Shown here one piece after another: positions 1-47,858 of a stretch of 64,000 nt of DNA. The DNA is taken from IMG/VR virus record IMGVR_UViG_3300042013_000103. One strand, 5' to 3'. The first letter of the stretch is position 1. Every line of letters starts with the position of its first letter. The DNA is from a virus. Taxonomy: Duplodnaviria; Caudoviricetes. Below the pieces are notes generated by a model, which did no database searches, was not told where the DNA came from, and saw only the letters and a program-made list of their open reading frames with translations. Both the position numbers and the translations under genes were made by a program.

Positions 1-652
1 CAATCACACCGTCAATCAGCCCGGCTTCGGTAACGCGCTTGGCCACTTCCAGCGTTTGACCGATCGAGAAGATGTCTTCCGGACGGATCAAGTGTGCTGT
101 AGGGGGCGCGAACATTTGGTTCATGCTCGAACCGATGTCCACAGGCGACACGATCTGGTTGGAACCGGCGATGACCATGTTCCGCACAGGGCCGTTGATG
201 GTCTGTTGGATGGACTCGTTGATGATGGTTTCAGAGTTGAAGTAGATACGCATCTTCGGGTCGAGGAGACCACCGTACGAGATGTCGCAGTTGTCGGAAC
301 TGCCGAAGAAGATCCGTTGTGTGGTCACGCCACCCATGAACGGGTTTTGTTCACGCACCTTCATGATGAAACGGAACCGACGCGATTTCCAGCCTTCACC
401 GGAGATCCCGACTTTACCTTCCACTTGGGCCCGTGGGCAGACGATGTCCGACGCCACGTTCTGTACCGATGCCACACCCAGGTTGGCGCCTTCTTGTGTC
501 GCGTACTGCAAGCGGCTGATCGTATCTTGGTTGACGTGCACCTCGAATGGACGCAGGTACTGTTCTTGGTACGTGCCGGTTTGCGTGAGGATGAACATCT
601 CCACACCCAGCATGTTGTTGGTCCGATTCATATTCAGGTTAAAGCTTTGCAT
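1..652 (-). CDS. picA: Phage-nucleus protein import factor PicA/Imp1 (phiKZ gp69-like), N-terminal 217 codons, runs off window start
   Basis: Translated by hand (absent from ORF track): MQSFNLN...QYLRPF...GWKSRRFRFIMKV...GGLLDPKMRIYFNS...IRPEDIF; open frame to position 1; lies directly downstream of the gp68-like gene as in phiKZ/PhiPA3. Confidence 0.8.
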   Translation of the reverse strand, partial: MQSFNLNMNRTNNMLGVEMFILTQTGTYQEQYLRPFEVHVNQDTISRLQYATQEGANLGVASVQNVASDIVCPRAQVEGKVGISGEGWKSRRFRFIMKVREQNPFMGGVTTQRIFFGSSDNCDISYGGLLDPKMRIYFNSETIINESIQQTINGPVRNMVIAGSNQIVSPVDIGSSMNQMFAPPTAHLIRPEDIFSIGQTLEVAKRVTEAGLIDGVI

Positions 653-8781: not shown

Positions 8782-8803
8782 AATACCTCCGCTAAAAAAG
8801 AGA

Positions 8804-30128: not shown

Positions 30129-30583
30129 CAGGGGGTTACCTTGTCAGTGAGGAGTTTGAGTTGTTCTGCACGAAAACGAGCCCGCTGGTTCGAGAAGTCC
30201 CATAGCGTCGCCTCGATCACCGATTTGAACGGCTCTTTTCCGAACTGGTGATCGGGTGTGCCGGTGGCTTGAGCAAGGAACCAGGTTGGAGGGCGATCGA
30301 CCGGGGTAGAGCGGCCGGTGTCCCCTTCATACACAACCGAATGCATGGTGCTGACCAACAGACGCCACAACCCATCCTGCTCCAACGCAATGTTGCGGGA
30401 CAAAAGGTCGTAGATGTCAGCGTTGCGCAGGTGCATGGCCGCAGCCAGTTCGTCCATGGTCGGGTGTTCGTCCAGCATCACTGCCTTGTACAACAAGGTC
30501 TTCAGGTAGTGACGCTGGAAAGCAATGCGGGGGTCGAACATTTCGAGGGTGATGCGTTGGTCTTGAGCAAACAATACGTCCAT
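30128..30583 (-). CDS. Putative HTH-containing protein, 151 aa, paralog of 29727-30128
   Basis: PTMDELAAAMHLRNADIYDLL HTH-like segment; AAGGA RBS. Confidence 0.55.
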   Translation of the reverse strand: MDVLFAQDQRITLEMFDPRIAFQRHYLKTLLYKAVMLDEHPTMDELAAAMHLRNADIYDLLSRNIALEQDGLWRLLVSTMHSVVYEGDTGRSTPVDRPPTWFLAQATGTPDHQFGKEPFKSVIEATLWDFSNQRARFRAEQLKLLTDKVTP

Positions 30584-30648
30584 TGAAAGGTTCCTTTTGA
30601 TGGGGGACATAAAAGAAGGCCCGAAGGCCCTCTCTTACGCACAGTCGA

Positions 30649-31602: not shown

Positions 31603-31633
31603 GATTGTTACCTTATTGCTAGGAGTTTTGAGA

Positions 31634-32095
31634 TTAGTGGTCACTACGGGCAGTAATGGCCATGACGATCTTTTCGAAACAGTTGTAGAACAGAACTTCT
31701 ACGTAACCGTTGCACAGTTTCGTTTCCCAGGTGCCCCCGTTGGTCACGTGCGTGAGGATTTGTTCACGTATATAAGTAAGCTTGTAAACCTCGGGTTTCA
31801 ACCACAACGGGGCAAACAGTTCCGTCAACCATTCCAGCGAAGGCACCCGTCGCTTGGGGTTGTTGGTGTCATTGGCCATGAACCGAGAGGTATCCACGAT
31901 GTTGTTCTCGGCATCAAACAGCACCAGTAGCACACCGGCGTCTTTGGCGTATTTGTTGAGGGTGTAACCCCCTTGGGCGTCGATGTTATTGGCAATGGCC
32001 TGGGTCACCAATGCAGCGGTGTACTCCGAGAGCATCACCCCATGTCGCTTAAAGGTTTGTTGGATGGCTTCCTGGGTAGGTTTAGCTTGTGGCAT
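31634..32095 (-). CDS. Hypothetical protein, 153 aa
   Basis: AGGAG RBS. Confidence 0.6.
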   Translation of the reverse strand: MPQAKPTQEAIQQTFKRHGVMLSEYTAALVTQAIANNIDAQGGYTLNKYAKDAGVLLVLFDAENNIVDTSRFMANDTNNPKRRVPSLEWLTELFAPLWLKPEVYKLTYIREQILTHVTNGGTWETKLCNGYVEVLFYNCFEKIVMAITARSDH

Positions 32096-32140
32096 TCTGA
32101 CGCTCCTATTTCCTGTACATCATCTACCTCCGCAGTATTG

Positions 32141-32245
32141 TTACACAATGCGGACGATGCTTCCTTTACCGTTCCGGTAGATGACCCACTCGATCTTGCG
32201 CCCTTGGTCGAGGGCTTGTTGCAGTGCGTTGTTCGTGTTCGGCAT
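32141..32245 (-). CDS. Small peptide, 34 aa (not in ORF track)
   Basis: MPNTNNALQQALDQGRKIEWVIYRNGKGSIVRIV; AGGA RBS. Confidence 0.4.
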   Translation of the reverse strand: MPNTNNALQQALDQGRKIEWVIYRNGKGSIVRIV

Positions 32246-32493
32246 GCGGTGGTTTTCCTGGTCACTTGAGATGAATCGGCTTACTAAATAAGGAATAATT
32301 ACGCGGGTCCTCCCCAGAGGGTCCCCCCCACATAATTATATTCTTTATAGGTAAATCTTTGTTAGAAAACAAAAGCTTTTAAAAGAAAACAGCTTACTGA
32401 ATTCCCTGTCGTTCCAAAAGCTTTATAGCGCGATTTTGTTAAAACCGACGAACGGCATACCACCTCCCCAGAGGGAGGCAGCGGGCTCAGACA

Positions 32494-33819
32494 TTACTCA
32501 ATGGTTTCGATGATGCCGGTTTCCGTGATCACGTCTTCTTCCTTCTCCCCAAGCAAAAATTGGGTCGAGATCACTTTGAAGCTGAAGTCCCGTGTGAGCG
32601 ACTTGTACACCAACCCTTCCCGGTAGCTACCTTTGCGTCCGTTAAAGACCGCAGGGCCCTCAGCGGCGGCCAGGCAGTCCTTTACCGTAGGAGGCAGCAA
32701 AGTGCAAGGGTCAGCCACTGGAATGTACCTCAACCCCAGGACTTCACAGATGGAACGGGCACCGTGAGGCGGTAGTTCCATGTTGCCGTTGCTGTAAATC
32801 TTGTACACGAAGAACTCGCGGGCTTCCAACCCTTCGAAGTTCGACTGAATGCCCGGACCACAGAGTTCCCCTTGCAGGGTCAACGCCACCCCCGAGTTCT
32901 GCTGGTAACGTTGCAACTTTTCCACCAGGCCATGGGCTTTCACGTAATTGGTGAAGTCGTTGCTATCGTTCTTGCTGACTTTCCAGGCCGGCCAGATCAA
33001 ACGGCGACGAGCGATGCACCGGCGGTTGCGACCCAAGAAACTGGCCACCCAGTAACGCAGCTGTTCAAAGCGGGTCCATGGCACGGGTTCCAGGTCGTAC
33101 TCAACGTTCCGGGAACACACCCCCGACAACATCATGGCGTCTTGCACCACGTTGTAGACGGTCATCGACGCGCCATTCAGCTTGATCGACGCTTCGAAAA
33201 GCTCATTGTTCTCCACAGCCTTCCGGTACGCCATTGTGAGGTTCTGTACGCGATCCTCAGTCGACTTGGTAAGAAACTTAGGCCACGGCTTCTCATTCTG
33301 CAGATCGCCCATTACACGGGCTACCAGGCGCTCGTACCAATCCGGGGCTTTCAGGGACTCGGCGTTCTTCTTACCGGAGGATTCGTACTTCAGAATCCCC
33401 AGTTCCAAGGTCACGTTGTCGTCGACCTTCTTGCCGCTGAGTTCTGCGGGGATCGGCACCACCAACCCTTGGGCCAGCTCCTTGCGGAACTTGGTGGTCT
33501 TCAGGCGGTGGTAGTTGGTCCCGTTGACGGTGCGCAGGTCAGAACGACGCGCTTCCAAGAACGAAAACAGCGGGTGTTCAACCGGCAACAAACTGTCGAT
33601 CTCACAGTAGATCGCGCGATCCCCGGCTTTGTATTCGTCGAGTTTGACCACACACTGCCAGCCCCCAACCAACGCCAAGGACAACCGATCGGCGTTAGGA
33701 TGTTTGATCACTTCGTCGATGACGACGATGCGGGCCAGTTTACGTTCGGTTTCCACCACCCCCACGCCAGAACGGATCGGCGCGAGTTCTTCGGGCAGTA
33801 CAGTTTCAATTGCAGTCAT
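32494..33819 (-). CDS. ATP-dependent RNA ligase, DRB0094/Rnl2-like family, 441 aa
   Basis: N-terminal HPNADRL...GWQCVVK OB module, motif I KLNGAS, LQGELCGPGIQ, EGLV, SFKVIS. Confidence 0.88.
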   Translation of the reverse strand: MTAIETVLPEELAPIRSGVGVVETERKLARIVVIDEVIKHPNADRLSLALVGGWQCVVKLDEYKAGDRAIYCEIDSLLPVEHPLFSFLEARRSDLRTVNGTNYHRLKTTKFRKELAQGLVVPIPAELSGKKVDDNVTLELGILKYESSGKKNAESLKAPDWYERLVARVMGDLQNEKPWPKFLTKSTEDRVQNLTMAYRKAVENNELFEASIKLNGASMTVYNVVQDAMMLSGVCSRNVEYDLEPVPWTRFEQLRYWVASFLGRNRRCIARRRLIWPAWKVSKNDSNDFTNYVKAHGLVEKLQRYQQNSGVALTLQGELCGPGIQSNFEGLEAREFFVYKIYSNGNMELPPHGARSICEVLGLRYIPVADPCTLLPPTVKDCLAAAEGPAVFNGRKGSYREGLVYKSLTRDFSFKVISTQFLLGEKEEDVITETGIIETIE

Positions 33820-35210
33820 TCAGCAGCATCCTTTTTAGGGTCGATTCCAGAGACATAAGTTTCGAAGATAGCCAACAAACGTTCGGGGTTTAACGTGCTT
33901 TCATAGTCGTACATCACCATGGGTTTGGTCATGTCGGTCTGACCAGTAGCGATCCGGTAACGGACTTCGGCCCGCCATTCGTTTTCGTCTCGACCTTCCG
34001 GTACGGGCATGGCGTTGACTAGGAAATCCGACGGCCCCGACTTACCTAGGTTCGAGGCATGGGACCAATAAACCCCCTCTTGGAATTGACCGGTGGAAAA
34101 GTCGAAAAGGGGTTGATCGTTCAGGGTCTTCCGGAGGTGGGCGTTGGTGAACGACCCCGCCACACCATCCGATTCTGAGCAATGGCGTAAGCGCTCGGAC
34201 AGGTTTGCCATCACCGCGTTCGGATCGAGTGGTGCGACATTTGTGCTTTCTGTTGGGTGGACGTAGAAAGCCATCGTTTCGTTACGACCAGTTTGCGTAG
34301 TCTCAGCCATGATCTGAATCAGGTCATGGACGTTACCTAGGGACGTACCCTCTTCATGTTCTGCGTATGTACGTAAACGCTCGGACAGGTTTGCCATCAC
34401 GGTGTTCGGATCAACCCAAGGGGCGAATGGCCGTTCGCCAAAAATGATCTGGTACAGACGACGGTGGGTCTCTACCATTGCACCTTCTTCAGGTACTGGT
34501 CCGAAACGGAGAACGTCATGCCAGGTTGCCGTGTCCACCATCAAGCCTTTGCCGCTTGGGGTGTCGAGGATGCTGTACGCCGCCAGTCCGATGGAACCCA
34601 GCACTTTCAAGTCACCCACCACAATGGTGAACGGTCCGCCTACTTTGGCTTCCAGTTCCGCCAAGACCTCGACGTCGCTTTTGAACAGTTTGCTGCTGGC
34701 ATCCTGCAACGCATCCCGAATGGCCAGTTCCCGTTCCATTTGGCGTGCTTGTGGTTCCAAGGCCGCAAAGCCTTCCCGGACCACATCGGCAGTGGTCTTG
34801 CCGAACGTGGAATTGGGGACGATGTTCTTTACCAAACGGGATGGTTTGGCACGTTGCAACAGTCGATTAAACATAGACGACATATCCTGAGGAATGTTGT
34901 GGGTGGCTTTACGGTCCCGGCCTTCGCCTTGTACGGGTTGTTCCAGTTTGGCGTACCAACTGCAATCGTCCGCGTCCGAGTACATTGGAATCTCGAGGTG
35001 CTTGGTGGAATCCCGCGACACCTGGGAAGCCAGGTTTGCCATGCTCAGGGCCAAAGAGAGTCGATGGGAAAACATATCTTCCTCCATGAGGACCATGCCA
35101 AAGTTGTGGAGACCGGGATCGATCCCCAAAATGCGGCGCGTGGGTGGGGTTACCGGCAAGGGGCTATCTAACCCGACGCAGACGAACGACAAGCCATCGA
35201 ATGGGTTCAT
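33816..35210 (-). CDS. Mosaic hypothetical protein, 464 aa, with RuvC-like N-terminal strand and internal repeat
   Basis: RILGIDPGLHNFG; repeat DPNxVMANLSERLR twice. Confidence 0.6.
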   Translation of the reverse strand: MNPFDGLSFVCVGLDSPLPVTPPTRRILGIDPGLHNFGMVLMEEDMFSHRLSLALSMANLASQVSRDSTKHLEIPMYSDADDCSWYAKLEQPVQGEGRDRKATHNIPQDMSSMFNRLLQRAKPSRLVKNIVPNSTFGKTTADVVREGFAALEPQARQMERELAIRDALQDASSKLFKSDVEVLAELEAKVGGPFTIVVGDLKVLGSIGLAAYSILDTPSGKGLMVDTATWHDVLRFGPVPEEGAMVETHRRLYQIIFGERPFAPWVDPNTVMANLSERLRTYAEHEEGTSLGNVHDLIQIMAETTQTGRNETMAFYVHPTESTNVAPLDPNAVMANLSERLRHCSESDGVAGSFTNAHLRKTLNDQPLFDFSTGQFQEGVYWSHASNLGKSGPSDFLVNAMPVPEGRDENEWRAEVRYRIATGQTDMTKPMVMYDYESTLNPERLLAIFETYVSGIDPKKDAAE

Positions 35211-35992
35211 TCACGGTCTTCCATAGCCAACGCAACTGATTCGTGGAACTTACCGGTGGCCAGATCCACTGCCGCGTGGTAGAGGTTGAAACGGTAGGTT
35301 TCCGGGTTCCCATTCACCGCTGGAATGGACATTTGGAAGTGTTCCACCACCACCTTGCCTTCGGCATCCGTGCGTTTGCCGTAGGTGTAGGTCATGGCGG
35401 CACCGGGTTGGCCAGTCTCTTCGAGCAAGTACGCGATTTGGGCAGCGTACAAGTGTAACGCTTCGCCCAACCACGCCGGCCGGTTGGATTTGACCAAGGC
35501 CAAAAAGCTCTTCTTACTGGAGAGAGTTTTTTGATCGTCCAACTGGGACGGTTTCTCGGTGAAGGTGAAAATGCGGAAACTGTTCTGCGTGCACGGTTCT
35601 CGTTTGACGATAGTGCAGGTTTTACGGCTGGAGTGATTGTAGCCCTGGCAGATGAAGGTGTCTTGAATGAACAGTTCTGCAGCTGCGCGACGGCGACTGG
35701 TGATGAAGTCCATGGAACGGACGTCCGCCAGCAACACGTTCAAGGCTTTTTCGGCCACGGCCTCGTGATTGAATTTCTGTTCCGGCAACTCAGCGAAGCG
35801 CACCGTGATATGCCCCAGGACTTTTTGGTCGTGTGACACCTCCACTACCGCGTTGTCGTCATTCGCTTGAATTTTGATGTCCAAGCAAGTGGCGCATTGT
35901 TCCATATGGAAGATGTGCTTGGTGCCGCGTTGGAACAGTTCGTCGGAAACGCCCAGTTGGTTGTACCAGCCAGGAAAGAAAAAATGAGCCAT
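35207..35992 (-). CDS. Hypothetical protein, 261 aa
   Basis: First gene after early promoter at 36034. Confidence 0.6.
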   Translation of the reverse strand: MAHFFFPGWYNQLGVSDELFQRGTKHIFHMEQCATCLDIKIQANDDNAVVEVSHDQKVLGHITVRFAELPEQKFNHEAVAEKALNVLLADVRSMDFITSRRRAAAELFIQDTFICQGYNHSSRKTCTIVKREPCTQNSFRIFTFTEKPSQLDDQKTLSSKKSFLALVKSNRPAWLGEALHLYAAQIAYLLEETGQPGAAMTYTYGKRTDAEGKVVVEHFQMSIPAVNGNPETYRFNLYHAAVDLATGKFHESVALAMEDRE

Positions 35993-36033
35993 TAGAAAAA
36001 TGCCTTGTGGTGGTTAGGGTAAAGATCACTAAC

Positions 36034-36061
36034 GTAATATAGTTCTGACTTATTTTAAAAT
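36034..36061 (-). promoter_or_regulatory. Early promoter
   Basis: CTATATTAC at 36034-36042. Confidence 0.7.
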
Positions 36062-36071
36062 CTACCGAACG

Positions 36072-36100
36072 GGCATAAGAAGAGCCCGAAGGCTCCTCTT
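36072..36100. terminator. Hairpin terminator
   Basis: ggcataagaagagcc-cgaa-ggctcctctt. Confidence 0.55.
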
Positions 36101-36110
36101 GTGGGGGTTG

Positions 36111-36398
36111 TTACGGGAACGCTTGACGGTCGATCACGGCGAAGCTGCCCTTCTCGATGTAAGCCAACAGCGTGGCCTTGTTGGTCACGTTGGAACTGCG
36201 GTCCACGGAAAACTGGATGGACAACTTACCCGCCACGTTGTAAATGGCTGCTTCGTGGTGCACGGGTTCGAATTCCAGGGTATCGGTGACATCCGTGAGG
36301 TAGCTGAGGTTAAACAGACGACGGATCACTTCCTTGCAAAACTCCACCGGCAACCGAGTTGCGGTGGACACTTCAGCCAACGTTACTTCAATTTTCAT
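36111..36398 (-). CDS. Hypothetical protein, 95 aa
   Basis: ORF with RBS. Confidence 0.55.
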   Translation of the reverse strand: MKIEVTLAEVSTATRLPVEFCKEVIRRLFNLSYLTDVTDTLEFEPVHHEAAIYNVAGKLSIQFSVDRSSNVTNKATLLAYIEKGSFAVIDRQAFP

Positions 36399-36407
36399 AG
36401 GGGTACC

Positions 36408-37172
36408 TTAGAGGGTGTAGTATTCGTGGTACTGAGCCAACGTGGGGTCGGTCAGTTGAATGTCTTGGCGGGTTAAGCGCACCACATAATGAGTGGTGTT
36501 ATCGCGCTTGATCCTGCCGCTGATGGTCGTCTTGGCGTAATCCTGCACCGTCAATTCTTCCACCGTGTCAAACACCACACCTAACTTCATGTACCGTGTC
36601 ACCAAGCGAGCCAAAGCCCGACCTGCTTCTCCTGGAACCACCGCCAGCGCTTCCCACAATCCAGGGTGCGTTACGCGGTCGAGAGGCACGGGGCCTAGTT
36701 CGGTTAAAATATCCAGTTGGAACGGCACCAACCCTAACGTGACGATAATCGGACGGAAAATGCGGTAGCCAGTCGCCGTGCATTCCATTCGGTAGTGGGC
36801 AGTCGGATTAGTATCCTGCAAGGCCTCTAGGTGGTCTTCTAAGGCACGCATGATGGAGACGTTGTACCGTAGGGTACTTTCGATATAATCCCGCTCAAAC
36901 GCAGCCTGAGCGCTTTCATTAGGAAAGGCCTTCATCACACTCCAACTCAATGTTTGTCCCGTTGCTTTCTCCGTCAACACGAACATGTAGTGCGTGGCAT
37001 CAATCAATTGCCATTGCACCGACCAGGCGTCCGGTTGGCACAATGCGTTGCACCGTTTGCACAGGTCTTTCAGCCGTTCCCGGTCTTTCAGTTGCTGTCC
37101 CAGTTGACACACGTCGTACTGACTGAGGTCAATGCTGGTGTCAACAACCGGTTTAATCGTACACCAACTCAT
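36408..37172 (-). CDS. Hypothetical protein, 254 aa
   Basis: GAGGAG RBS. Confidence 0.6.
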   Translation of the reverse strand: MSWCTIKPVVDTSIDLSQYDVCQLGQQLKDRERLKDLCKRCNALCQPDAWSVQWQLIDATHYMFVLTEKATGQTLSWSVMKAFPNESAQAAFERDYIESTLRYNVSIMRALEDHLEALQDTNPTAHYRMECTATGYRIFRPIIVTLGLVPFQLDILTELGPVPLDRVTHPGLWEALAVVPGEAGRALARLVTRYMKLGVVFDTVEELTVQDYAKTTISGRIKRDNTTHYVVRLTRQDIQLTDPTLAQYHEYYTL

Positions 37173-37254
37173 GGCGTTCTCCTCTGTGGAATTCTTCTAC
37201 AGATTATTGCGCCATAAACCCCTCCTGGTTGCCGGCCAAGGAGAGGGAATTGCA

Positions 37255-38295
37255 TTACAGGTTGATGTGGATGGACTTGGGTTTCTCCACCCCGGTTTCC
37301 ATCAGGTTAATCGACAAACGCGACTGGCCGTAGTTGGACAGTTCGAAGGAGGTCACCACAGGGTCGTTCAAGGACTTCAAGACCATGACCAAATACTCGT
37401 TGATCCAACCGAGGGGCAACTTCAGCAGTCCGGCGAGTTTCTCGAGGCCCTGGGAAGCCCGCTCGATGGACATGCACGCCACCGCATGGCTGTCTTTTTT
37501 GTGTTCGTGTGAATTGACGTCCATCGCGTGGATGGTGGCGTCGTCTTTAAACAGGTAATAGCTTCCGGTGTATTGCGACGTCAATTCGTCATGACCATAC
37601 CGGTGTGTCGTACGCACTAGCTGCCCGTACTGCGGGTCGAGTTTCGGGATGAGCGAAACAGGCGCAACGCCGAGGTTCAACACCACCGAGTAACTCAGGC
37701 CGGCTTTCAGGTAATTGGCCGTGAGGGTGTAATCATGACTGGATTTGGTCAACCGCATGTTGTCGCAGCCAAAACCCTTCTCACTCAGGGCTTTGTCCAG
37801 CTGAGCGAACATGCTGACGCGGGCAATGGAACTGTCCCCGCCGTCGCGGCACAGGGTCACGGCCGTAATGATCGTGCGCTTGCGGACGTCCGCGGTGACC
37901 AGTTCCTCGACAGACCGGTCGACGTACCAGCTGTTCCGGGGTTTCAGTTCCAGGATGCTGAAACCGGTGGCTTTCACCACCACGGTGCCGCCTTTGGGTC
38001 GGAACCCCACCAACGGGTATGTCCCGCCATCGCGGGTGTCGTCGATGGCACCTTCAATCAGATGATATTCAGCCGGCACATGGCCGTTCAACACGTCGGA
38101 CAGGAGGACCTGGTCTTCTTCTTTGATCTTGGTGCGTTCGGGTTGGCATGCAGCCTGCCACGGCAGAAAAGGATCGGCACCCGTGGCCGATGCCGAGGCG
38201 TTCACAGGAGCACCGGCGGTTACAGCGACTTGCGGTTCTTCCGACGGAGCAATTTCGGCATCGGTTTGTTGCTCATTAACGAGGGACATCGGCAC
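37255..38295 (-). CDS. Hypothetical protein, 346 aa
   Basis: Long ORF followed by hairpin at 37211-37247. Confidence 0.6.
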   Translation of the reverse strand: MPMSLVNEQQTDAEIAPSEEPQVAVTAGAPVNASASATGADPFLPWQAACQPERTKIKEEDQVLLSDVLNGHVPAEYHLIEGAIDDTRDGGTYPLVGFRPKGGTVVVKATGFSILELKPRNSWYVDRSVEELVTADVRKRTIITAVTLCRDGGDSSIARVSMFAQLDKALSEKGFGCDNMRLTKSSHDYTLTANYLKAGLSYSVVLNLGVAPVSLIPKLDPQYGQLVRTTHRYGHDELTSQYTGSYYLFKDDATIHAMDVNSHEHKKDSHAVACMSIERASQGLEKLAGLLKLPLGWINEYLVMVLKSLNDPVVTSFELSNYGQSRLSINLMETGVEKPKSIHINL

Positions 38296-38401
38296 GTACT
38301 CGTGAAGGTTAGCGGGGCTATCACAAAATGAGACAGCGCAGTATAACTACATTTCTGAAGCCAATGGTGTAGATTAATAACTGGCCTAAACAGGTGTACC
38401 C

Positions 38402-39634
38402 ATGACCAGAGTGACCATTAAGGAAGTCTTGGACGAAGAGTTCAAAGACGTGAAGTTCGACACTGAACTCTGCAAGCGGATCATCAAATACAACGTGCGG
38501 TTGATGAACGTCAACGCCAACCACTCCGCGTTCTTCGGCGGGGTGTTGATTGGGGTGAATGAAATCCGGTTTCACGAGTCGGACATGGAACTCTGGTACG
38601 AGGACGTGTTGGGCATTGACGAAGAGATGCTGAAGCACAACTTCGCCCGGGTGTCGTCCATCGACAAAGACCACAAAGTGATCTCCACGGCGTTCAACCA
38701 CCTACCGGGGTACATCACTTACCGGTTGAACCAAGAACGGAACATCCCGCAGAACGTCCGGCACGAAGCGGAAGTGGCGTTGTTCATGATCATGCACATT
38801 CGGTTCTTGACCTCGTTGTTGGTGCCCCGCTTTAAGTACCCGGCCAAGAAAGCCATCGCCGAAGCGGCCTTTGCCGCGTTGTCGTACAAATACGACATCA
38901 AGAACTACGGCAGTTGGCGGGATTTGCTGAAGGCCCGTTCCGAAGACATCCTGGTGCGGGATTCGATCTACGCCAAAGTGTTCCAGCAGTACAACGACGA
39001 ACACATGGCGATCCGTTTGGTGTCCGACAAACAAACGCTCATCCGGAAACTGATCAACAAGTATTTCGGTGTGTATTGCCTGGTCAAAGAAAACGGGGGT
39101 CGGATTGTAACGACCTCGGACATGATGATGTCCACCGATGGTGACATGGTGCTGAAAGACCGAACCACGGGGTATTCGACCTACGTCAGTTACCTCAACA
39201 CAGTGATCCAACGGGAACGGGACTTCATTCGCCCAGAGTTGCAAACAGTGGTGGAACAAGCGGTGGAGCAGATGCCACCGCAGCTGCTCGACAAAACGTT
39301 GGCGTACATGTCCAAGAACTACACCCAAGCGCGCATGAAGCACTTGGAGACGTTTACGGAAGAGTGCTTGCTCTACACCTTTGATTACCTGCAGTCGATC
39401 CGGACTCAAGCAGGGCGCAACACGGACCTGGTGGGCATGGTCACCCAAGTGCGGGCCAAACTCATGGCCTCCCGGTCGGAAGACATTCGGGTGTTGACCA
39501 TTCGGGAAGCCGGGGAACAGATTGTCAAGGAAGCCACGGGCGTGAAAACCCCCGCCTCCTTAGCGGCCACCCGGACGGGGTTGATGCTGTACCTGATGTT
39601 GCGGGCGATGACCCGTCAACATTACGACAGTTGA
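38402..39634 (+). CDS. Conserved phiKZ-like virion protein (gp32 position), 410 aa
   Basis: Opposite-strand core gene following the tube/sheath block. Confidence 0.6.
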   Translation: MTRVTIKEVLDEEFKDVKFDTELCKRIIKYNVRLMNVNANHSAFFGGVLIGVNEIRFHESDMELWYEDVLGIDEEMLKHNFARVSSIDKDHKVISTAFNHLPGYITYRLNQERNIPQNVRHEAEVALFMIMHIRFLTSLLVPRFKYPAKKAIAEAAFAALSYKYDIKNYGSWRDLLKARSEDILVRDSIYAKVFQQYNDEHMAIRLVSDKQTLIRKLINKYFGVYCLVKENGGRIVTTSDMMMSTDGDMVLKDRTTGYSTYVSYLNTVIQRERDFIRPELQTVVEQAVEQMPPQLLDKTLAYMSKNYTQARMKHLETFTEECLLYTFDYLQSIRTQAGRNTDLVGMVTQVRAKLMASRSEDIRVLTIREAGEQIVKEATGVKTPASLAATRTGLMLYLMLRAMTRQHYDS

Positions 39635-39647
39635 CAAAAAAGAAAAT

Positions 39648-39682
39648 CATACGCCCTCTCCCGAAGGAGAGGGCGATATGCC
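39648..39682. terminator. Bidirectional hairpin terminator
   Basis: catacgccctctcc-cgaa-ggagagggcgatatgcc; near-identical to 61208-61244. Confidence 0.75.
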
Positions 39683-39683
39683 G

Positions 39684-39956
39684 TCACACCCGAGGGGCGA
39701 GAAAGTGCATCGGGTCATCGCGCGGGTCTTTGACCAACGTGCAGTCGACTTCCCACCAGCGTGCGCCGTAAATGTCCCAGCGGCGATAGCTGTTGTTGTA
39801 GGGTTGACGGAAACTGACGTTTTTGAAACGTTTGCGCAACCGCATCATGGCCATGTCTTTAAGGATCCGCCGTTCCCACGTAGGGCCCAACAGGACCCCG
39901 TCTTCCAGGTACGCCGAGAGGAGCTTGCCCATGGGCAATGGTTGGTGGTTGAGCAT
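39684..39956 (-). CDS. Hypothetical protein, 90 aa
   Basis: AGGA RBS; accessory operon. Confidence 0.55.
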   Translation of the reverse strand: MLNHQPLPMGKLLSAYLEDGVLLGPTWERRILKDMAMMRLRKRFKNVSFRQPYNNSYRRWDIYGARWWEVDCTLVKDPRDDPMHFLAPRV

Positions 39957-39973
39957 TATAATGTTCCTATTGG

Positions 39974-40285
39974 TTAAAGTTCGTGGGTGTTCTCGATGGG
40001 TGGGAAATAAAAGACTATGGTTTGGCGTTCGCCGCTGTCGCAGTTATACGCCTTGCGTTCAACGATGACCTTGGCCCAACCGGCAGCCAGGTACTTTTCC
40101 CGGACGGTGTTTTCTTCATGGACGTCGAGCATGTCGTCGAGGTCGTAGATAACCATCTCGATGTGCGCGTCTTCACCGCAGCCGTGAATGCCGTTCTCAC
40201 GATCCATGAAATCTTCAATGCGTTGAATGGCCAGCGCCGCATAGTTGGTTTGCATGAATTTGCGAGGGCCAGTGACGTTACTCAT
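39974..40285 (-). CDS. Hypothetical protein, 103 aa
   Basis: GGAGG RBS. Confidence 0.6.
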   Translation of the reverse strand: MSNVTGPRKFMQTNYAALAIQRIEDFMDRENGIHGCGEDAHIEMVIYDLDDMLDVHEENTVREKYLAAGWAKVIVERKAYNCDSGERQTIVFYFPPIENTHEL

Positions 40286-40297
40286 GTGTTGCCTCCG

Positions 40298-40702
40298 TTA
40301 AGGTTTTGAAATGTTCGGGTGACAGCACTCGGTGGTGATGATCTCGGAGTTGAAGTAGAGGCGCATCTTCGGGTCGAGGAGACCACCGGACGAGACATCG
40401 TCTTCCGCATCATCGTGCCCCGGGAACACGATGTGGTTGTAGGTGCGGTTGTTCCCGTTGATCGAAGGTGACATCGAAACCACCACCTCGTAGTGTGCGT
40501 TGCCGTGGATGTCCCACACTTCGTAGTTCCCGCTGTTAGGGAGCTTGCGTTTAAACGCCACGTTGATGAAACGTTTTAACAAAGCTTGTTGCGCCCGGTC
40601 CACGTGTTTCGGTTTGGTCCAGAAGACATCGCTGTCCTCGAAAATGATGACCTGTCCGTTTAGGCCACGGACGTTTTCCGCCATTTCAAGAAGGGTGGAC
40701 AT
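40298..40702 (-). CDS. 134-aa accessory protein carrying a PicA-derived C-terminal segment
   Basis: SSGGLLDPKMRLYFNSEII vs PicA SYGGLLDPKMRIYFNSETII; 40/42 nt identity. Confidence 0.7.
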   Translation of the reverse strand: MSTLLEMAENVRGLNGQVIIFEDSDVFWTKPKHVDRAQQALLKRFINVAFKRKLPNSGNYEVWDIHGNAHYEVVVSMSPSINGNNRTYNHIVFPGHDDAEDDVSSGGLLDPKMRLYFNSEIITTECCHPNISKP

Positions 40703-40729
40703 TATAATTTTCCTATTAAACGGGGGTGG

Positions 40730-41095
40730 TCAGGCTTTTGGTGCGTCACGCCGGATGTCTACGGTCACGTAGGACCCCGTGAGGTCCACACGGGCTTCTT
40801 CGATGACCTTACTGTGGATGCCCGCCAGGCTGCTGAAGTCGATCTCCACCAGCCGCACCTGCTTGCGTCCCGCCAAGCGCTGTTTGCACATGTCTTTCAC
40901 GTACGGCAGGTTGCACAGATTGGCCGTGGTGGTGAGCAGGTTGAATTCCTTCACCGCAGTGGCACAATCCATGAACCCCGACGGGACCATGTGATCGCTC
41001 CAGAACGGCACGCCGCCTTTGATGATGTCAATGCCCATGAAACGGATAGAGCCGTCGTCCAAGTCCATCGCTTCGATTGCATAGAGTAAGTCCAT
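40730..41095 (-). CDS. Hypothetical protein, 121 aa
   Basis: GAGG RBS. Confidence 0.55.
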   Translation of the reverse strand: MDLLYAIEAMDLDDGSIRFMGIDIIKGGVPFWSDHMVPSGFMDCATAVKEFNLLTTTANLCNLPYVKDMCKQRLAGRKQVRLVEIDFSSLAGIHSKVIEEARVDLTGSYVTVDIRRDAPKA

Positions 41096-41107
41096 GGTAA
41101 TGTCCTC

Positions 41108-41416
41108 TCAGTACATCGTGACGTAGGTCGAATAGAAGTCCGCAATGGCGTCGGCGTACTTCTGTTGGGTGGCCAGTGAATACTTGCCGTTAGGGAAGAT
41201 GACGCTGTAGCCGTCTTCCACCAACCCCGAAATGGCCACCGGTTGTTTCTTGTCGTAATCCACGCAGACTGAATCGACACAGTGGATCAGGGTCGAGTCG
41301 AGGATCATTTGGTGCAAGAGGTCTGCGTCGACCTCCGGGTGGTCCAAGGCAGGGTGATCCGCTGCGTGGGCTACATTCAACAACAAACCGCAGGTCAAGG
41401 CGAGAAGTAGTTTCAT
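41108..41416 (-). CDS. Secreted/periplasmic protein, 102 aa
   Basis: Sec signal MKLLLALTCGLLLNVAHA-A; mature part has HC-x4-C. Confidence 0.65.
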   Translation of the reverse strand: MKLLLALTCGLLLNVAHAADHPALDHPEVDADLLHQMILDSTLIHCVDSVCVDYDKKQPVAISGLVEDGYSVIFPNGKYSLATQQKYADAIADFYSTYVTMY

Positions 41417-41847
41417 GCCAAGTCATCCAGGTAAATGTGGTAAGGTATGTCGAACTGATGCAGCCGGTTCAACAGGTCCTGTTCTTGGTTATCGGTGCGC
41501 ATTAAGAACGTGAAAGCCCAATGCCGGTCGTCCGATTCAATCGCTTCGATTTCTTCTTTGTCCGGCACCACGGGATCGTTGAGCGTGCGAACGATGTGCT
41601 CAAGGTCTTTGAGCTGGGCCCAACTGTACGCCCGTGCCTCGATAACGGAGCGGGAAACGTACTGGGACGATTGAATACCGTACGTTTCAAACAACAAGGT
41701 CACAGCCGCTCCAGCGTCGCCGGGAACTTCCAGTAACACCCAACCGTCGCCTACAGTCTTAGCCACCAGCCATTGATTGTCGTCAACAGCTTTGAGAATG
41801 CGCTCGTAGTCGCCTTCAAAAATTGAGTACACACTGATCATCGTCAT
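41413..41847 (-). CDS. Hypothetical protein, 144 aa
   Basis: AGGA RBS. Confidence 0.55.
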   Translation of the reverse strand: MTMISVYSIFEGDYERILKAVDDNQWLVAKTVGDGWVLLEVPGDAGAAVTLLFETYGIQSSQYVSRSVIEARAYSWAQLKDLEHIVRTLNDPVVPDKEEIEAIESDDRHWAFTFLMRTDNQEQDLLNRLHQFDIPYHIYLDDLA

Positions 41848-41947
41848 GGTAGTTTTCCTATTGGTAGGGGATTAACAAAGGGGCGCTAGGCCCAAGGGTA
41901 TAAAAAAGAAAAAGAGAACCCACCCGCAGCTGGGTCCCCTTGGGGCA

Positions 41948-42115
41948 TTATGGAACGATGCCCGCCATCGTCATCAGTTTCTCCACGGCCAAGTAAATAC
42001 CGTACGGGGGAAACCACGAGAACAGCGTTTGCCAAGCCCCCTTGGCGATCACCACACCCATGCACCAGAGCACGACGATAAACGCCACGCCCATACCGTT
42101 TGTTTTTATCTCCAT
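41948..42115 (-). CDS. Small membrane protein, 55 aa (not in ORF track)
   Basis: MEIKTNGMGVAFIVVLWCMGVVIAKGAWQTLFSWFPPYGIYLAVEKLMTMAGIVP, hydrophobic. Confidence 0.6.
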   Translation of the reverse strand: MEIKTNGMGVAFIVVLWCMGVVIAKGAWQTLFSWFPPYGIYLAVEKLMTMAGIVP

Positions 42116-42118
42116 GTG

Positions 42119-42388
42119 TTAAGCCACCGCATTTAGGTTAAAGATTTTCTTCAGGACCGTCCGGGCGTCCACCGTCAACGCCGTTCGTTCCTCGTCGTTC
42201 AATGACGCGAAGACCGTTAATACTTCGTCAATGGCATTATCCAACGACAAGTGCTGTTGGGTCGGACTGAAGTCTTCGATGCCGAAGCAACGTTCATTGA
42301 CTTCCACCGCAACCGCATAACGGATGCTGGAGAGGAAAGAAGTGCGTACGGGGACTTCGTCTTGCAGCAGCTGTTGAAGGGTGCGCAT
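42119..42388 (-). CDS. Hypothetical protein, 89 aa
   Basis: AAGGAG RBS; promoter variant CCATATTAC at 42431-42439. Confidence 0.6.
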   Translation of the reverse strand: MRTLQQLLQDEVPVRTSFLSSIRYAVAVEVNERCFGIEDFSPTQQHLSLDNAIDEVLTVFASLNDEERTALTVDARTVLKKIFNLNAVA

Positions 42389-42442
42389 CGGTAAAGCTCC
42401 TTGGGTTAGTGTGAGAACAGTCTCACTTCCGTAATATGGCCG

Positions 42443-42787
42443 TTATGGGTTTTTAAAGGTGGTCAGGTAATCCGAGGGTTCCGCTGTAGAAGCTTGTATC
42501 GTTCGGATCACTTTCCCCAGCAGACTTTGTACGTACTGGTACGACTCGTCCTTCACGTCTAAGTCATTCCACGCTTGGGTGCACCGCAGGTAAAACCCTG
42601 AGGCACGTTCGAGGATATTCCCCAACACCACGTCGGGGTTATCCAACCGCATGAAGTTCACCCGCCGTTCACGCACGTCCCAGGTCACCAAGATGTTATC
42701 CTCTGGCAATTCCATGGAGTAGCCCGTGTGGGTCCGTGCCATCAGGATCAATTGAGTGGCGCGGTTCAGGAACATGGCTTTGCTCAT
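42443..42787 (-). CDS. Hypothetical protein, 114 aa
   Basis: AGGA RBS. Confidence 0.55.
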   Translation of the reverse strand: MSKAMFLNRATQLILMARTHTGYSMELPEDNILVTWDVRERRVNFMRLDNPDVVLGNILERASGFYLRCTQAWNDLDVKDESYQYVQSLLGKVIRTIQASTAEPSDYLTTFKNP

Positions 42788-42820
42788 TGTAAACAGTCCT
42801 ATTGGTTATTATGGTTGGGT

Positions 42821-43186
42821 TTACCTGGGGGTATCTGTGTCCAGATCCCAGTCGAGGATGAACTCGGAGATGCAGATGCCCGGATGGGCGTTGTCGAGTG
42901 ATATACGGGCGAACAGGATCTCTTCGTCTCGGAAGGTGAGTTGGGTGTAGATCAACTGATCGCGCATCCCCAAGATGCTGTGGGTGCGTGGCAACACCAC
43001 GGTGTATTCCATGCCCGGACGACACTCAACGCCGAAGTACTTCCGGATCATGTCATAGTCCACTGTACGGCTGGTGCCTGTCCGTGGGTTCATGACGAAC
43101 CACTCTTTGAAAGGAGCCGCCGCACCGAACGTGGTGAGGTCACGGAGTTCAAACTTGACAAACTGATCACTGCCTTGCATACACAC
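42821..43186 (-). CDS. Hypothetical protein, 121 aa
   Basis: GAGG RBS. Confidence 0.55.
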   Translation of the reverse strand: MCMQGSDQFVKFELRDLTTFGAAAPFKEWFVMNPRTGTSRTVDYDMIRKYFGVECRPGMEYTVVLPRTHSILGMRDQLIYTQLTFRDEEILFARISLDNAHPGICISEFILDWDLDTDTPR

Positions 43187-43194
43187 CTCTTGGT

Positions 43195-43419
43195 TTATTT
43201 TTCAGTACAGGTAAAGATGGCGGTGCCGCCACGCCAGTGGACGATGGCCCCGTTGCTGGTCCGAGCGATCAAGCTTTCCGGCAGCATGGCGGCTTCGATG
43301 GAGATGGCCTTCATGCATTTGGTTTGGTTGGTGTACTCGGACGTGCTGCGGTGAACGGGTCGAGTGGGGAGGTCATTTTGGTACAGCACCACGCTCAGAA
43401 TGGCCGATGCGATGTCCAT
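43195..43419 (-). CDS. Hypothetical protein, 74 aa
   Basis: AAGGA RBS; first gene after promoter at 43520. Confidence 0.55.
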   Translation of the reverse strand: MDIASAILSVVLYQNDLPTRPVHRSTSEYTNQTKCMKAISIEAAMLPESLIARTSNGAIVHWRGGTAIFTCTEK

Positions 43420-43505
43420 GAGATGTTCCTTTTAAGGGATAGCAACATAAAAGCCACCGAGGCACTATATGTTAGTGACCCCAGTAATCTTTCGCCGATT
43501 AAGTT

Positions 43506-43530
43506 GGTTTATCCCTGTTGTAATATAGTC
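43506..43530 (-). promoter_or_regulatory. Early promoter of accessory operon 39.7-43.4 kb
   Basis: CTATATTAC at 43520-43528. Confidence 0.7.
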
Positions 43531-43554
43531 ATTTAAATCGTTTCAATGCAACGC

Positions 43555-43590
43555 GGCATAAAGCCTCCCCCGCAGGGAAGGCCGTATGGC
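43555..43590. terminator. Terminator of sheath-tube operon
   Basis: ggcataaagcctcccccgcagggaaggccgtatggc. Confidence 0.6.
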
Positions 43591-43591
43591 G

Positions 43592-43777
43592 TTACTTGGA
43601 CGACAACGGGAACCGTTGGCTGGAAGCCGCCTGCAGGTCCTTACGGGCCGCAGCGCCTTGCTCTAACTGCGCAGCAAAGCCCACGTCAGTTGCTGAAGCC
43701 ACGTCAGTGGACAGCAGGTTGTTGTAGTCCGGCCGTTTGGGTTGCCCCGCCGGCGTGGAGATCGGTTCACCAGCCAT
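43592..43777 (-). CDS. 61-aa protein repeating the tail-tube C-terminal motif
   Basis: AAGGA RBS overlapping the tube stop; DVGFAAQLEQGAA vs tube [13 protein letters not shown]. Confidence 0.6.
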   Translation of the reverse strand: MAGEPISTPAGQPKRPDYNNLLSTDVASATDVGFAAQLEQGAAARKDLQAASSQRFPLSSK

Positions 43778-43789
43778 GTGCAGGTTCCT

Positions 43790-44659
43790 TTAAACAACGA
43801 TACGGTTAGCCGCGCCTTGTTCCAGCTGTTTAGCCAGACCGGTGTCAGCCGCACGAACGTCTGCCGTTGCCTTCTCAATCCAGGTACGGGTTTCGTTCGG
43901 GTTCATGCCGCCACGGTTCAACCCGGCCAGCAGTTCACGCGCGTACAGAATCACGCCATCAGAGATGTCGGTGATCGCCGTGAACTCGATGTTGAGGTCG
44001 AGGTTCTGACCGATCTGGCTGACGTCCTTGCGGGCGTCCCACGGACCGGTGCCGGTCGGCTGCATGTTGGTGCACAGGTACGCTTGCACCACGTCCGTCA
44101 TGGTTGGGTCCGGTTCGATGAACATCATCGACATGCCCGCGAAGGTCTGGTCGTAATGCTGCGCTTGAACCACACCGTCCGAAACGATACGTGGGTACTT
44201 GGTGTTTTCGTCCGCGATGCCGTAGGTGATCCACCACTTGATGAATTTCTGTACGGCACGGCCTTGCAGTTCCCACAAACCGAAGTTCGGGTTGCTCGGC
44301 GAACGGGTCACGTTGGTGGCCGTTTGGATACGCTCACCAGAACCGCCCCAAGGCGATTCAGCGTAGTCCACCTGGATCTGTTGAGTCAGACCTTCGATGG
44401 TGCGGGCGTGGGTTTCCACCAGAGCCTTCAGACAACGCACGAGGTAGGCTGCGTTGCTGGTGTACCGGAAGAACCGAGGTGCTTCCAGTAGGAACGGGAT
44501 CAGGTTACGGCCCACGTACGGGGTGTTCGATGCGATGTTGCCGAGAGCCGGAGCAAGCTGGAACGAGCCAGCCTGCGCCAAGTTCATCATGTTGGCAACG
44601 TTCGACGTACCGAAGCTCTGTTGAGGAGCGAACGGCGAGTTAAAACGGGTGATAGCCAT
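43790..44659 (-). CDS. Tail tube protein (phiKZ gp30-like), 289 aa
   Basis: Follows sheath gene; size and [15 protein letters not shown] motif. Confidence 0.8.
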
Positions 44660-44674
44660 TTCGTGTTCCTCTTA

Positions 44675-46783
44675 TTAACGACCGGCGACAGCAGGGACAG
44701 CCGGATCGCGATTTTCGCGACGGACCGTTTCCAGGTCGAAGTTGAAGGTGGTGTGCGGATTGTTAGCCGCAACAGTCACACGGCAGCTCCAGCTGGTGCC
44801 ATTGTTTTCGTCGATCGGCGAGATGTACGTACGCGGGATGATGTCGACACGATCACCGAAGAGATCTTTCGTCAGTTCCAGAATACGTTCGTCGGTACGC
44901 TCGATCAGCTGGTTCTTGTCGATGGACGCATCGCCCGAGAAGTCAGCGTGAACTTTGTAGATGAGACGGATCAGCACGCAGCAGATGTTCACGGTCACTG
45001 GCGACAGCAACACGGAAGTATCGTCCGCGGTCACGGAACGCAGGCACGGGTAGTACTGCGAACGGGTGTCGTACGACTGCGACCAGGTCGCGCCGTTGGT
45101 CCACACCTGGGAACGGGTGCGGGCATCGATGAACTCGATGTTCAGGCCTTTCACGAACGACACACGGTTGTTCGGCGACTTGTCCATCTTGAACGCTTCG
45201 TTCAGTTGACCGGTACCTGCACCAGCGTACTTGGCCCACTTCATCGCCACGTCGAGCAGTTGGGGCACGCGCTTGTTGTAGCCGCCCGCCATCAGTTTAC
45301 CCGACTGCAGCACGATCATCGCTCGGCAAACACCGGTGCCGTACAGGACGGATTCCGGGAAAGCTTTCAGGCGCGTGATCAACGCTTGGGTCCGGGAGGC
45401 TTCTTCCGTCACCGTCAGACCGCGCTTCTCGCCTTCGATCATGGTGGTGAAGAAGTATTGGATGTCCCGACGCGCTGCCATGGCGTTCATCGCCCGGAAC
45501 TTGGACTCCATCGGCAGGCCGGTGTCGTACAGCTGACCGAACTGGTAGATCGCGATGTTGTCGTACTGGTCGCCGAGTTTACCGAAGTTCAGGTTCTCGA
45601 TGTCAACCAGGTTGGCGTAGGTGTCCAGGTTCATGGTGCCGTCTTTGCCACCGGCCGCGAACACTACGGTTTGCTTGCCGAGCAGAATGCCGCCACCCAG
45701 AGCCCCTTCCAGTTTAACGGATTGGTACGGGTCGCCGTCTTCTTGCAGCATGGTCAAGAAGTCGATCTGAGTCGGCTCAGTGGCCTGGCTGGAAATGGCT
45801 GGGTTAACCCGCATCTCCGCGTCAAAGATCAGCTCTTGCACAACTTGTACGTTCGAGCGATATACGTATACCTGGCTGAACGGGGAGTACAGTGGGGACA
45901 GGCCCGCTTGCACACCGTCGTCGGCGTAACGGTCCACCAGCACTTCGTCGATGGTGTAATCGAGGTCGTTGGTGTTCGAGAACACGCCTTCGTCAAAGCT
46001 GACGTTGACGAAGTCTTCTTGGTTGGCCGTCTTGATAATGGTTGGGGTGGTGCCCACGGCCGGCATTTCCACGAACTGCACGCGGTACATGCGGGTCAGG
46101 AATTGAGCGGCAGTTTCTTCGTCGTACCCTTCCAGGTCCAGACGGGTCGGTGCCCAGATGCGCATGCCTTGGTTATTGCCCAGTTTGCCGAAGAAGCTGG
46201 CTGGCAGTTCCATCAACGGGTAAACCGAGGATTGACTGTTGTCGATGCTGGAAATCATTTCGCCCGGCAGGACACGCTGACCGCCGATCTCGGTGGTGTT
46301 GTCACGAATCAGCACGATGCGGGCGCGATAGCCTTCCACAGTCGCGTCGGTCGACACCGGGGAATCCGTCAGGTCCGTCACCAGGTCTGGGTAGTTGAAC
46401 CCGGAAAGCTGCTGCACGGTCACCGGGATCATGTCGCGAACCATTTCCAGGGCCATGATCAGACGCGCAGGGGCACCGGCATCTTCCGGCTTCAGACGCT
46501 TGACGTAGAAACCGTTGCCTTGACCCAGCAGGTTCAGAGCCAGCAGAGACTGCAGGTTGAAGTACTTGCTGCGCGGGGCGAGGGAGTCAGCACCAAAGAT
46601 CGATGCGAAGCCATCATCGGAGTCGCCGACATACGTGGTTTCAGTTGGACCGGTCTCGGTGAAGAGACGGAGCAAAGGACAGTGTTGGGCATACGTGATT
46701 TCCGGACGGATGAAAGGCCGACGCGAACGGTCACGGATACCATTAAACACTACCTGTGGAACGGCATTGCTATAAGTCGCCAT
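44675..46783 (-). CDS. Tail sheath protein (phiKZ gp29-like), 702 aa
   Basis: [14 protein letters not shown]-terminus, about 700 aa, divergent from the gp28-gp25 block. Confidence 0.85.
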
Positions 46784-46910
46784 GTTTTTGCTTCTCCCAA
46801 ATATGGAGCTTTGAACTCGATCTTATGAGTGTTAACTAACAATCAATCATAGATATTAATCGTAACTGACTACGCTAGTTAGGTTTTACCAATCAAAAGG
46901 AGTCACCGGA

Positions 46911-47843
46911 ATGTACTTACTTCCATATGAGACTGCAATTTGCCAGAAGCTCTACCCTAAGGTAACTGGTGATATCGTCAATAAGATCAAGCGAGTAGAG
47001 CTTGATATGAAATTGCCAGAAGTCGCTACGCCTCTCGGGTATAAACTCCAGCATGCGGTTTTTGTGACACCGAGTGATGAGCATGAACTGGTGCCACAGT
47101 TCACTCAGTATCTGGACATCGGCACCCCTAAGGACCCCAAACTGGTGATCCATGGTGGGCAGTACATGTCCATCGAGAAACGGACTGGTACATACCGTTT
47201 GGTAGCTTCTGGTGATTGGAAATTACAATGCGTCCGAATGGCCCTCAACATGCACCTGTTAAACGGTGACGAAGCGTTCTTTTCCCGCTTCACGGACCTG
47301 CCGGTGAAAGTCTTTTCGCGCTGGTTGGCGGCGACGCTGACCAAGCAGTACAACCTGGGGATTGAATCCCAGATGGCCATGTACGTCATCGGGGCCTACT
47401 ACTATTACGCCATGTTCACCCCCGAGATGCGTCAACCGGGCGATGACCGGGAACGGGCAGCCATCAACGTGTCCCGGGTGACCGGTGTGCCGATCGACGC
47501 CGTGCTCAACCAACTGACCACCATGGGTCCGTTGCGCAACGTCGACGACCTGTGCCATGAATTCTCCACCAACGCCAACACCATCCGGATCGGCAAGCTG
47601 ACGTCGTCGGCGCTGTTCGTGCTGGTGCACTCCAGTTGGTTCGGGGTGAACGCCCGTGAGAACGTGGCCGTGGCCCTGGAACATTTACCGACCTTCCTGG
47701 CCTTACTGTACATGGCCGTGGACGATCGCTCATACCGTAATTCGGGTTTGACCAGCCGGGTAGAGAACGCCGCCCGGGGCAACGAGATGGCGGTGTTTGT
47801 GGACCTGGTGTCGCGGGCAGTGTCCGACTACTACGTGGAATAA
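46911..47843 (+). CDS. Conserved virion-associated protein (phiKZ gp28 position), 310 aa
   Basis: Synteny; AGGAG RBS. Confidence 0.6.
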   Translation: MYLLPYETAICQKLYPKVTGDIVNKIKRVELDMKLPEVATPLGYKLQHAVFVTPSDEHELVPQFTQYLDIGTPKDPKLVIHGGQYMSIEKRTGTYRLVASGDWKLQCVRMALNMHLLNGDEAFFSRFTDLPVKVFSRWLAATLTKQYNLGIESQMAMYVIGAYYYYAMFTPEMRQPGDDRERAAINVSRVTGVPIDAVLNQLTTMGPLRNVDDLCHEFSTNANTIRIGKLTSSALFVLVHSSWFGVNARENVAVALEHLPTFLALLYMAVDDRSYRNSGLTSRVENAARGNEMAVFVDLVSRAVSDYYVE

Positions 47844-47858
47844 TCGAGGAGCTTCACC

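Follow-up and report, generated by a model that had tools for sequence, protein, structure and literature searches.

A 134-codon open reading frame of a jumbo phage (the mini-ORF; 40298..40702, minus strand, with ATG at 40702-40700 and stop at 40300-40298) ends in what is, by the evidence of its sequence, a fragment of the phage's own copy of picA, the gene for the import factor PicA/Imp1. The whole stretch of DNA that was analyzed, referred to here as the window, is 64,000 nt long, and the mini-ORF within it is a chimera of two parts. The first is a body of about 80 residues resembling o90, a 90-codon ORF located two genes downstream; the second is a tail of about 45 residues derived from PicA, and the two meet near residues 78–91. 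We regard the mini-ORF as chimeric because its body matches o90, which has no similarity to PicA, whereas its tail matches PicA. Since only 39–48 of its residues align with PicA, it lies outside the PicA family and is more aptly called a chimeric accessory gene with a PicA fragment. That it is a real, lineage-restricted accessory gene in which the copy has the anatomy and evolutionary history set out below and the tail is functional is a joint reading to which we give an even chance.

The sequence shared by picA and the mini-ORF is the sole long non-regulatory dispersed repeat in the 64 kb window, and several of its features stand out. First, positions 40347-40388 and 234-275 are identical at 40 of 42 nt, including a perfect 27 nt core at 40362..40388 in the mini-ORF and 249..275 in picA (both minus strand), just as the preliminary description of this DNA had reported; none of 100 dinucleotide shuffles used as a control for the 42 nt repeat yielded a match. 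Second, without gaps the repeat extends over 90 nt at 81% identity (198-287 against 40311-40400), and when scored in 15 nt bins the identity drops to background on either side. Third, the two copies are both encoded on the minus strand; they share a common reading frame, again as previously described, and the residue numbers given then are right to within one residue: PicA residues 123–144 match mini-ORF residues 102–123, with the core of the mini-ORF copy coding for the last part of S105, for GGLLDPKM and for the first part of R114. Fourth, the similarity is more extensive at the protein level. Mini-ORF residues 87–134 (the PicA-derived tail, 40301..40444, minus strand, with the high-identity part at 40311-40400) align by BLASTP with PicA residues 110–155 with 24 of 48 identical (E 2e-12), which places the donor tract at 188..325 of picA (minus strand; tblastn 325..188), where it carries the motif MRxYFNSE; a six-member PicA alignment compared with the mini-ORF by hhalign pairs PicA 113–151 with mini-ORF 92–131 at 96% probability. 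Finally, the weaker similarity noted earlier in the upstream flank is real, given a 2-codon (6 nt) in-frame indel. There is no PicA similarity in the N-terminal 86 residues of the mini-ORF.

The identification of the donor gene as picA is borne out by database comparison. The window contains its N-terminal 217 codons (2..652, minus strand), as the gene runs off the window start, and across these 217 aa the product is 49.6% identical to PHIKZ069 (phiKZ gp69) and 54.8% identical to PhiPA3 gp63 (tblastn), and it matches phrog_3141 (E 1e-53). The full-length protein of 545 aa is available from a protein collection as P0043, which is 100% identical to the window PicA across the 217 aa and aligns with 49 PicA family members. 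The gene is preceded by a homologue of gp68 (the 527-aa phrog_3209 gene, 682-2265), and this gene order is common to phiKZ, PhiPA3, PS119XW, Phabio and RVTF4. By both homology and synteny, the predicted product of 2-652 (minus strand) is a true orthologue of PicA/Imp1, a shell-associated protein shown by phiKZ and PhiPA3 genetics to be needed for selective import (PMC11087766; bioRxiv 10.1101/2024.03.27.586873). Because the window PicA has no closer relative among 5.8 billion proteins than one of 63% identity, the phage is placed by its PicA sequence in a deep-branching, uncultured lineage of the Pseudomonas-type chimalliviruses. A 177-aa ORF without a PHROG or Pfam family (2268-2801, minus strand) is located between the gp68 homologue and a phrog_3284 gene (2945-3721; a candidate Imp6/ChmC homologue), and seems to have been inserted into a block around picA that is conserved in other respects.

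Alignment of six and then of fifty PicA orthologues shows M-R-x-Y-F-N-S-E to be invariant or nearly so, with a variable loop before the motif. The loop variant YGGLLDPK is present in just one of about 120 family members, the window's own PicA, and because the GGLLDPK loop of the mini-ORF is found elsewhere among these only in that protein, the copied tract derives from the phage's own picA allele. No solved PicA structure was found by sequence. An AlphaFold2 model of PicA built from a 50-row alignment (pLDDT 81, pTM 0.80) places the donor tract in the N-terminal sheet, as a strand (109–120), a lower-confidence loop (121–134) and a long strand (135–151).

The body domain of the mini-ORF (residues 28–77; 40472..40621, minus strand) has o90 (39684..39956, minus strand) as its only relative. 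The two share 36% identity over 50 aa (BLASTP E 4e-6), the single match in an all-against-all comparison of the window ORFs, and a pattern over about 50 residues that reads KRFxNVxF...Y..WDIxG....EV; they belong to the same operon and strand. Unlike the mini-ORF, o90 is without the PicA-derived tail and ends shortly past the shared domain. A PicA profile compared with o90 by hhalign detects no PicA homology (probability 0.08%), and a tail already present in the common ancestor of the paralogues is therefore rejected. The mini-ORF has no match in PHROGs or Pfam, and a search of the ESM Atlas with it gave no usable feature match, the Atlas model being poor; an AlphaFold2 model from a 2-row alignment is unreliable (pLDDT 41) and was therefore not used for a fold search. 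A 33-residue stretch at 40442-40543 (mini-ORF residues 54–87) resembles one FG-GAP blade without the acidic calcium-binding loop, and is 32–39% identical to each of six repeats of P0003. Assignment as an FG-GAP repeat protein was considered and rejected, as there is no Pfam FG-GAP match and the DxDxDG calcium-binding loop is absent, the corresponding residues reading DIHGNAH; the resemblance probably reflects a beta-hairpin and not homology.

The mini-ORF has the appearance of a translated gene throughout its length. An RBS-like motif, AGGAAAA, can be read 8 nt upstream of the ATG (40708..40714, minus strand). The codon score is 0.635 bits/codon in frame and about -1.0 off-frame, and equals that of the neighbouring and core genes in body and tail alike. 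The stop codon lies 12 nt ahead of the start of the next gene, the frame being open exactly up to that gene's RBS.

The copy has diverged very unevenly along its length, as seen from Nei-Gojobori counts of synonymous (pS) and non-synonymous (pN) differences between the picA and mini-ORF copies. In the upstream flank, where the 2-codon in-frame indel is required, pS is 0.72 and pN 0.52. In the 10-codon core there is no synonymous change (pS 0, pN 0.04; P about 0.011 given the rate outside). In RxYFNSE pS is again 0.72 with pN of 0.06, corresponding to three synonymous changes and a single replacement, I to L, at the motif position that varies in the family, and in the last 14 codons pS is 0.34 and pN 0.42 (ratio 1.26). 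Identity grades from 100% in the core through about 80% in the shoulders to about 44% in the outer flank, and the residues after E120 of the mini-ORF evolve as though unconstrained. Identical wobble positions had been put forward in the preliminary description as pointing to recent capture or ongoing gene conversion; they are seen in the 10-codon core, but the R, S and E codons of RxYFNSE differ synonymously. A simple recent capture is contradicted by pS values of 0.3–0.7 in the flanks, with only the 27 nt core homogenized. As the synonymous sites of the flanks and of RxYFNSE are heavily diverged, the duplication is old, and the overall pattern suggests that a brief stretch was later converted, that the motif has been under selection, or that both have occurred.

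The 27 nt core could also be kept as DNA or RNA (for example because it forms an RNA structure, binds a protein or is cut by an endonuclease) and not for its coding capacity, and a 10-codon core without synonymous change beside saturated synonymous divergence is what such a nucleotide-level element would produce. However, this seems very improbable. First, the folding energies of both copies are like those of shuffled controls (z +0.38, -0.23, +0.60 and +0.71), and neither copy has a match in Rfam. Second, there are only two copies, in the window and likewise in the sequencing run of a relative. Third, no endonuclease gene adjoins either copy. Because the folding z is about 0 and Rfam is empty, we favour short-patch gene conversion that has recently homogenized the core of the two copies over nucleotide-level constraint.

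Selection on the protein is suggested for the motif itself, because its residues persist through synonymous divergence. Residues 113–120 of the mini-ORF read MRLYFNSE, thus retaining the invariant PicA motif, and core and motif together have a pN/pS of 0.21 (Fisher P 0.04). If picA is constrained and only the mini-ORF lineage is free to change, however, the expected replacements halve; by our own estimate the significance is then P about 0.01–0.1, depending on the synonymous rate, and selection on the motif of the mini-protein is no more than suggestive. Nested gene-conversion tracts from picA are a viable neutral alternative that yields the same gradient. The tail would then be a functionless passenger: an o90-like gene would have acquired a piece of picA at its 3′ end by illegitimate recombination, occasional short-patch conversion would keep restoring the resemblance of this piece to picA, most effectively where picA tolerates the least change, and any work would be done by the body. 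We consider this a substantial possibility, somewhat short of even, and a neutral tail to be nearly as likely as a functional one. The gradient from core to shoulders to outer flank fits nested tracts, the residues downstream of the motif with their pN/pS of 1.26 fit a tail without function, and four residues that are invariant or nearly invariant in the family are changed in the copy (R113 to H, T111 to Y, T142 to I and G154 to K). Moreover, a 61-aa ORF in the window likewise echoes the C-terminus of the tail tube protein, so that this genome seems prone to the duplication of gene fragments. Against a passenger, the six invariant motif residues show three synonymous differences and no replacement, so that the motif part was not recently converted and yet has kept its protein sequence; in addition, the sole indel is in frame, and the frame is open precisely to the RBS of the next gene.

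The mini-ORF is the ninth member of a tightly packed, operon-like run of 11 small ORFs on the same strand (39684..43419, minus strand; 74, 119, 114, 89, 55, 144, 102, 121, 134, 103 and 90 aa). Upstream of the run is TATATTAC (43520..43527, minus strand), given as the promoter core of phiKZ and 201phi2-1 (PMC7058600 Table 2) and preceded here by an A/T-rich upstream element, ATTTAAATGAC; the early promoters of the phiKZ virion RNA polymerase comprise an extended -10 box and an upstream T-rich element (PMC8244752). Exact copies of TATATTAC number seven in the window against 0.3 expected, and all are on the minus (coding) strand. These seven motifs are probably early promoters for the virion RNA polymerase that define accessory cassettes, and early expression of the mini-ORF operon is a reasonable inference. 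The early timing proposed before is thus plausible insofar as a phiKZ-type motif heads the operon, the timing as such being read from that motif only. The operon is closed by a terminator hairpin with a T-run (39630..39667, minus strand; repeat families D1/D3), and a terminator-like hairpin of family D1 just upstream of the promoter motif (43544..43576, minus strand) closes the tail sheath/tube unit. In a wastewater run labelled as cDNA (X3), cover is thin, with 25 of 30 bins of a 20 kb stretch represented, and because early and late tail genes are covered alike, in a manner indistinguishable from DNA, this run is uninformative on transcription.

Several other elements of the window may be noted. 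The TATATTAC copies (2844, 14044, 15505, 25888, 27801, 36034 and 43520, all minus strand) sit within longer conserved promoter-like repeats (families D2, D4 and D8). A family of GC-rich hairpins with A/T-run terminators is present at 8792, 11691, 27830, 39635, 43544, 55055 and 61197; some members are near-identical over 33–54 nt, and several adjoin promoter motifs. The 55-aa ORF of the operon (41948-42115, minus strand) belongs to phrog_16613 (E 5e-12; function unknown) and is the operon's only clear PHROG member. The 61-aa ORF lies directly behind the tail-tube gene (43592-43777, minus strand) and repeats 12 of 17 residues of the tube C-terminus (E 4e-5), and has a weak match to phrog_26103.

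The best explanation, with the chimera's anatomy, its evolution and a functional tail taken as a whole, is in our estimation evenly poised. On this account, picA codons of about 110–155 were duplicated in frame long ago and now form the end of an o90-like gene; the 27 nt core would later have been homogenized by short-patch conversion, and selection would have preserved the invariant motif residues of the small protein. As part of the 11-ORF operon, the gene would be read early from TATATTAC at 43527-43520 by the virion RNA polymerase, and translated from its own RBS. More speculatively, the borrowed hairpin might pair with the beta-hairpin in the body and so display the PicA loop and motif, giving a small early protein an affinity for the contacts that the N-terminal sheet of PicA makes at the nuclear shell. 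We tentatively propose that the tail might be a docking or competing module, and not an importer, that lends PicA-like contacts, although we do not consider this specific role likely. A complex prediction for PicA and the mini-ORF returned a score of 0.00, which is no answer and counts neither for nor against such contacts.

A more elaborate version is a 'minimal PicA module', in which the hairpin of GGLLDPK and MRLYFNSE would bind a conserved partner of the PicA N-terminal sheet at the nuclear shell and thereby tune import, or block it in co-infecting chimalliviruses, with conversion keeping the loop matched to the phage's own picA; we think this improbable. The related proposal made at the outset, that the mini-ORF product could be an inhibitory PicA decoy, an early mimic that titrates a PicA partner or host sensor or poisons the import of co-infecting chimalliviruses, whose PicA has the universal MRxYFNSE in common with it, also seems doubtful. 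It has in its favour that the copied tract contains MRxYFNSE, the most conserved motif of the family, that the lineage-specific loop is letter-identical to that of the phage's own PicA, that the operon has an early-type promoter, and that import selectivity mediates competition between related phages (PMC11087766; PMC11620839). The tract also includes the position of the phiKZ PicA mutation C121Y, which blocks import of one artificial cargo (PMC11087766); phiKZ C121 aligns with C122 of the window PicA, in a weakly conserved part of the copied tract. However, the other named phiKZ PicA mutations, and with them most of those mapped for cargo selectivity, are at residues 297–468, outside the tract (PMC11087766). 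In the PicA model, moreover, the tract appears as a pair of long sheet strands and not obviously as an autonomous surface epitope, and the gene is confined to one lineage.

This restricted distribution is evident from all of the searches performed. A DNA search with the locus among 50,697 phage records gave no match, and scans of IMG/VR with the mini-ORF, with a neighbouring 410-aa gene and with a degenerate motif pattern found nothing. A word-based search of 5.8 billion proteins with the mini-ORF revealed no homologue beyond the lineage, an exhaustive HMMER search of 1.84 billion representatives recovered only a 99% strain copy, and a profile search with the body-domain alignment added no new members. 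Two other HMMER matches, to FG-GAP and SprB repeat proteins, were judged to be inflated by repeats and non-homologous. A second PicA-like locus was absent from the other phages in the 79 and 106 records searched. The earlier statement that no gene of this type had been described stands, for no PicA-fragment gene was found in the literature searched or in other genomes.

Within the lineage, the chimeric locus is carried in three independent sequencing runs. In a rhizosphere strain that is 98.96% identical (an 8.7 kb contig), the mini-ORF is intact and without indels, with three synonymous and two non-synonymous changes, none of them within the repeat. In a third strain, from wastewater, a gap-free fragment covers 40223-40472. 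At least two rhizosphere metagenome studies contain strains of the phage, and a 95–99% relative is present in a wastewater library labelled as RNA-Seq cDNA (in both cases for 39650-43550 and 30000-49999). In the run of a related strain, the picA contig shows eight mismatches to the mini-ORF tract, all of them identical to those of the window, and there is no third copy. The strains are uninformative on co-variation between picA and the mini-ORF, because the eight mismatches are identical and only strains of about 99% identity are available.

The mini-ORF thus shares with PicA/Imp1 of the Chimalliviridae a tract of about 40 residues (PicA 113–151) that includes MRxYFNSE, the phage's own loop, the frame and the strand, but it differs in being 134 rather than 545 aa long, with its first 86 residues unrelated, and is a carrier of a fragment rather than a paralogue. 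It is also without the rest of the N-terminal sheet and without the region of about 297–468 (phiKZ) in which most cargo-selectivity mutations are located. Mosaic or chimeric accessory ORFs that arise by partial duplication are a general phenomenon in phage genomes. The mini-ORF resembles these in that a small part of a conserved gene recurs, in frame, within a small accessory ORF of a variable cassette bounded by promoter and terminator; it departs from them in that the donor is an essential import factor and the piece its most conserved motif, and in that the two copies have a homogenized core within an old divergence. If the tail is functional, it isolates MRxYFNSE on a 134-aa carrier, which would be a simple bait for the contacts of the PicA N-terminus and possibly a natural regulator or competitor of phage-nucleus import. 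If it is neutral, the locus is a clean example of how partial duplication and short-patch conversion can link an accessory cassette of a jumbo phage to one of its essential genes.

The strains may differ in one other respect. One contig from X3 skips 384 nt (128 codons) at 33833-34218, inside a 464-aa ORF (33816-35210, minus strand) that holds a 54 nt direct repeat with 83% identity (34173-34226 and 34359-34412), and this may reflect an in-frame length variant of the ORF between strains.
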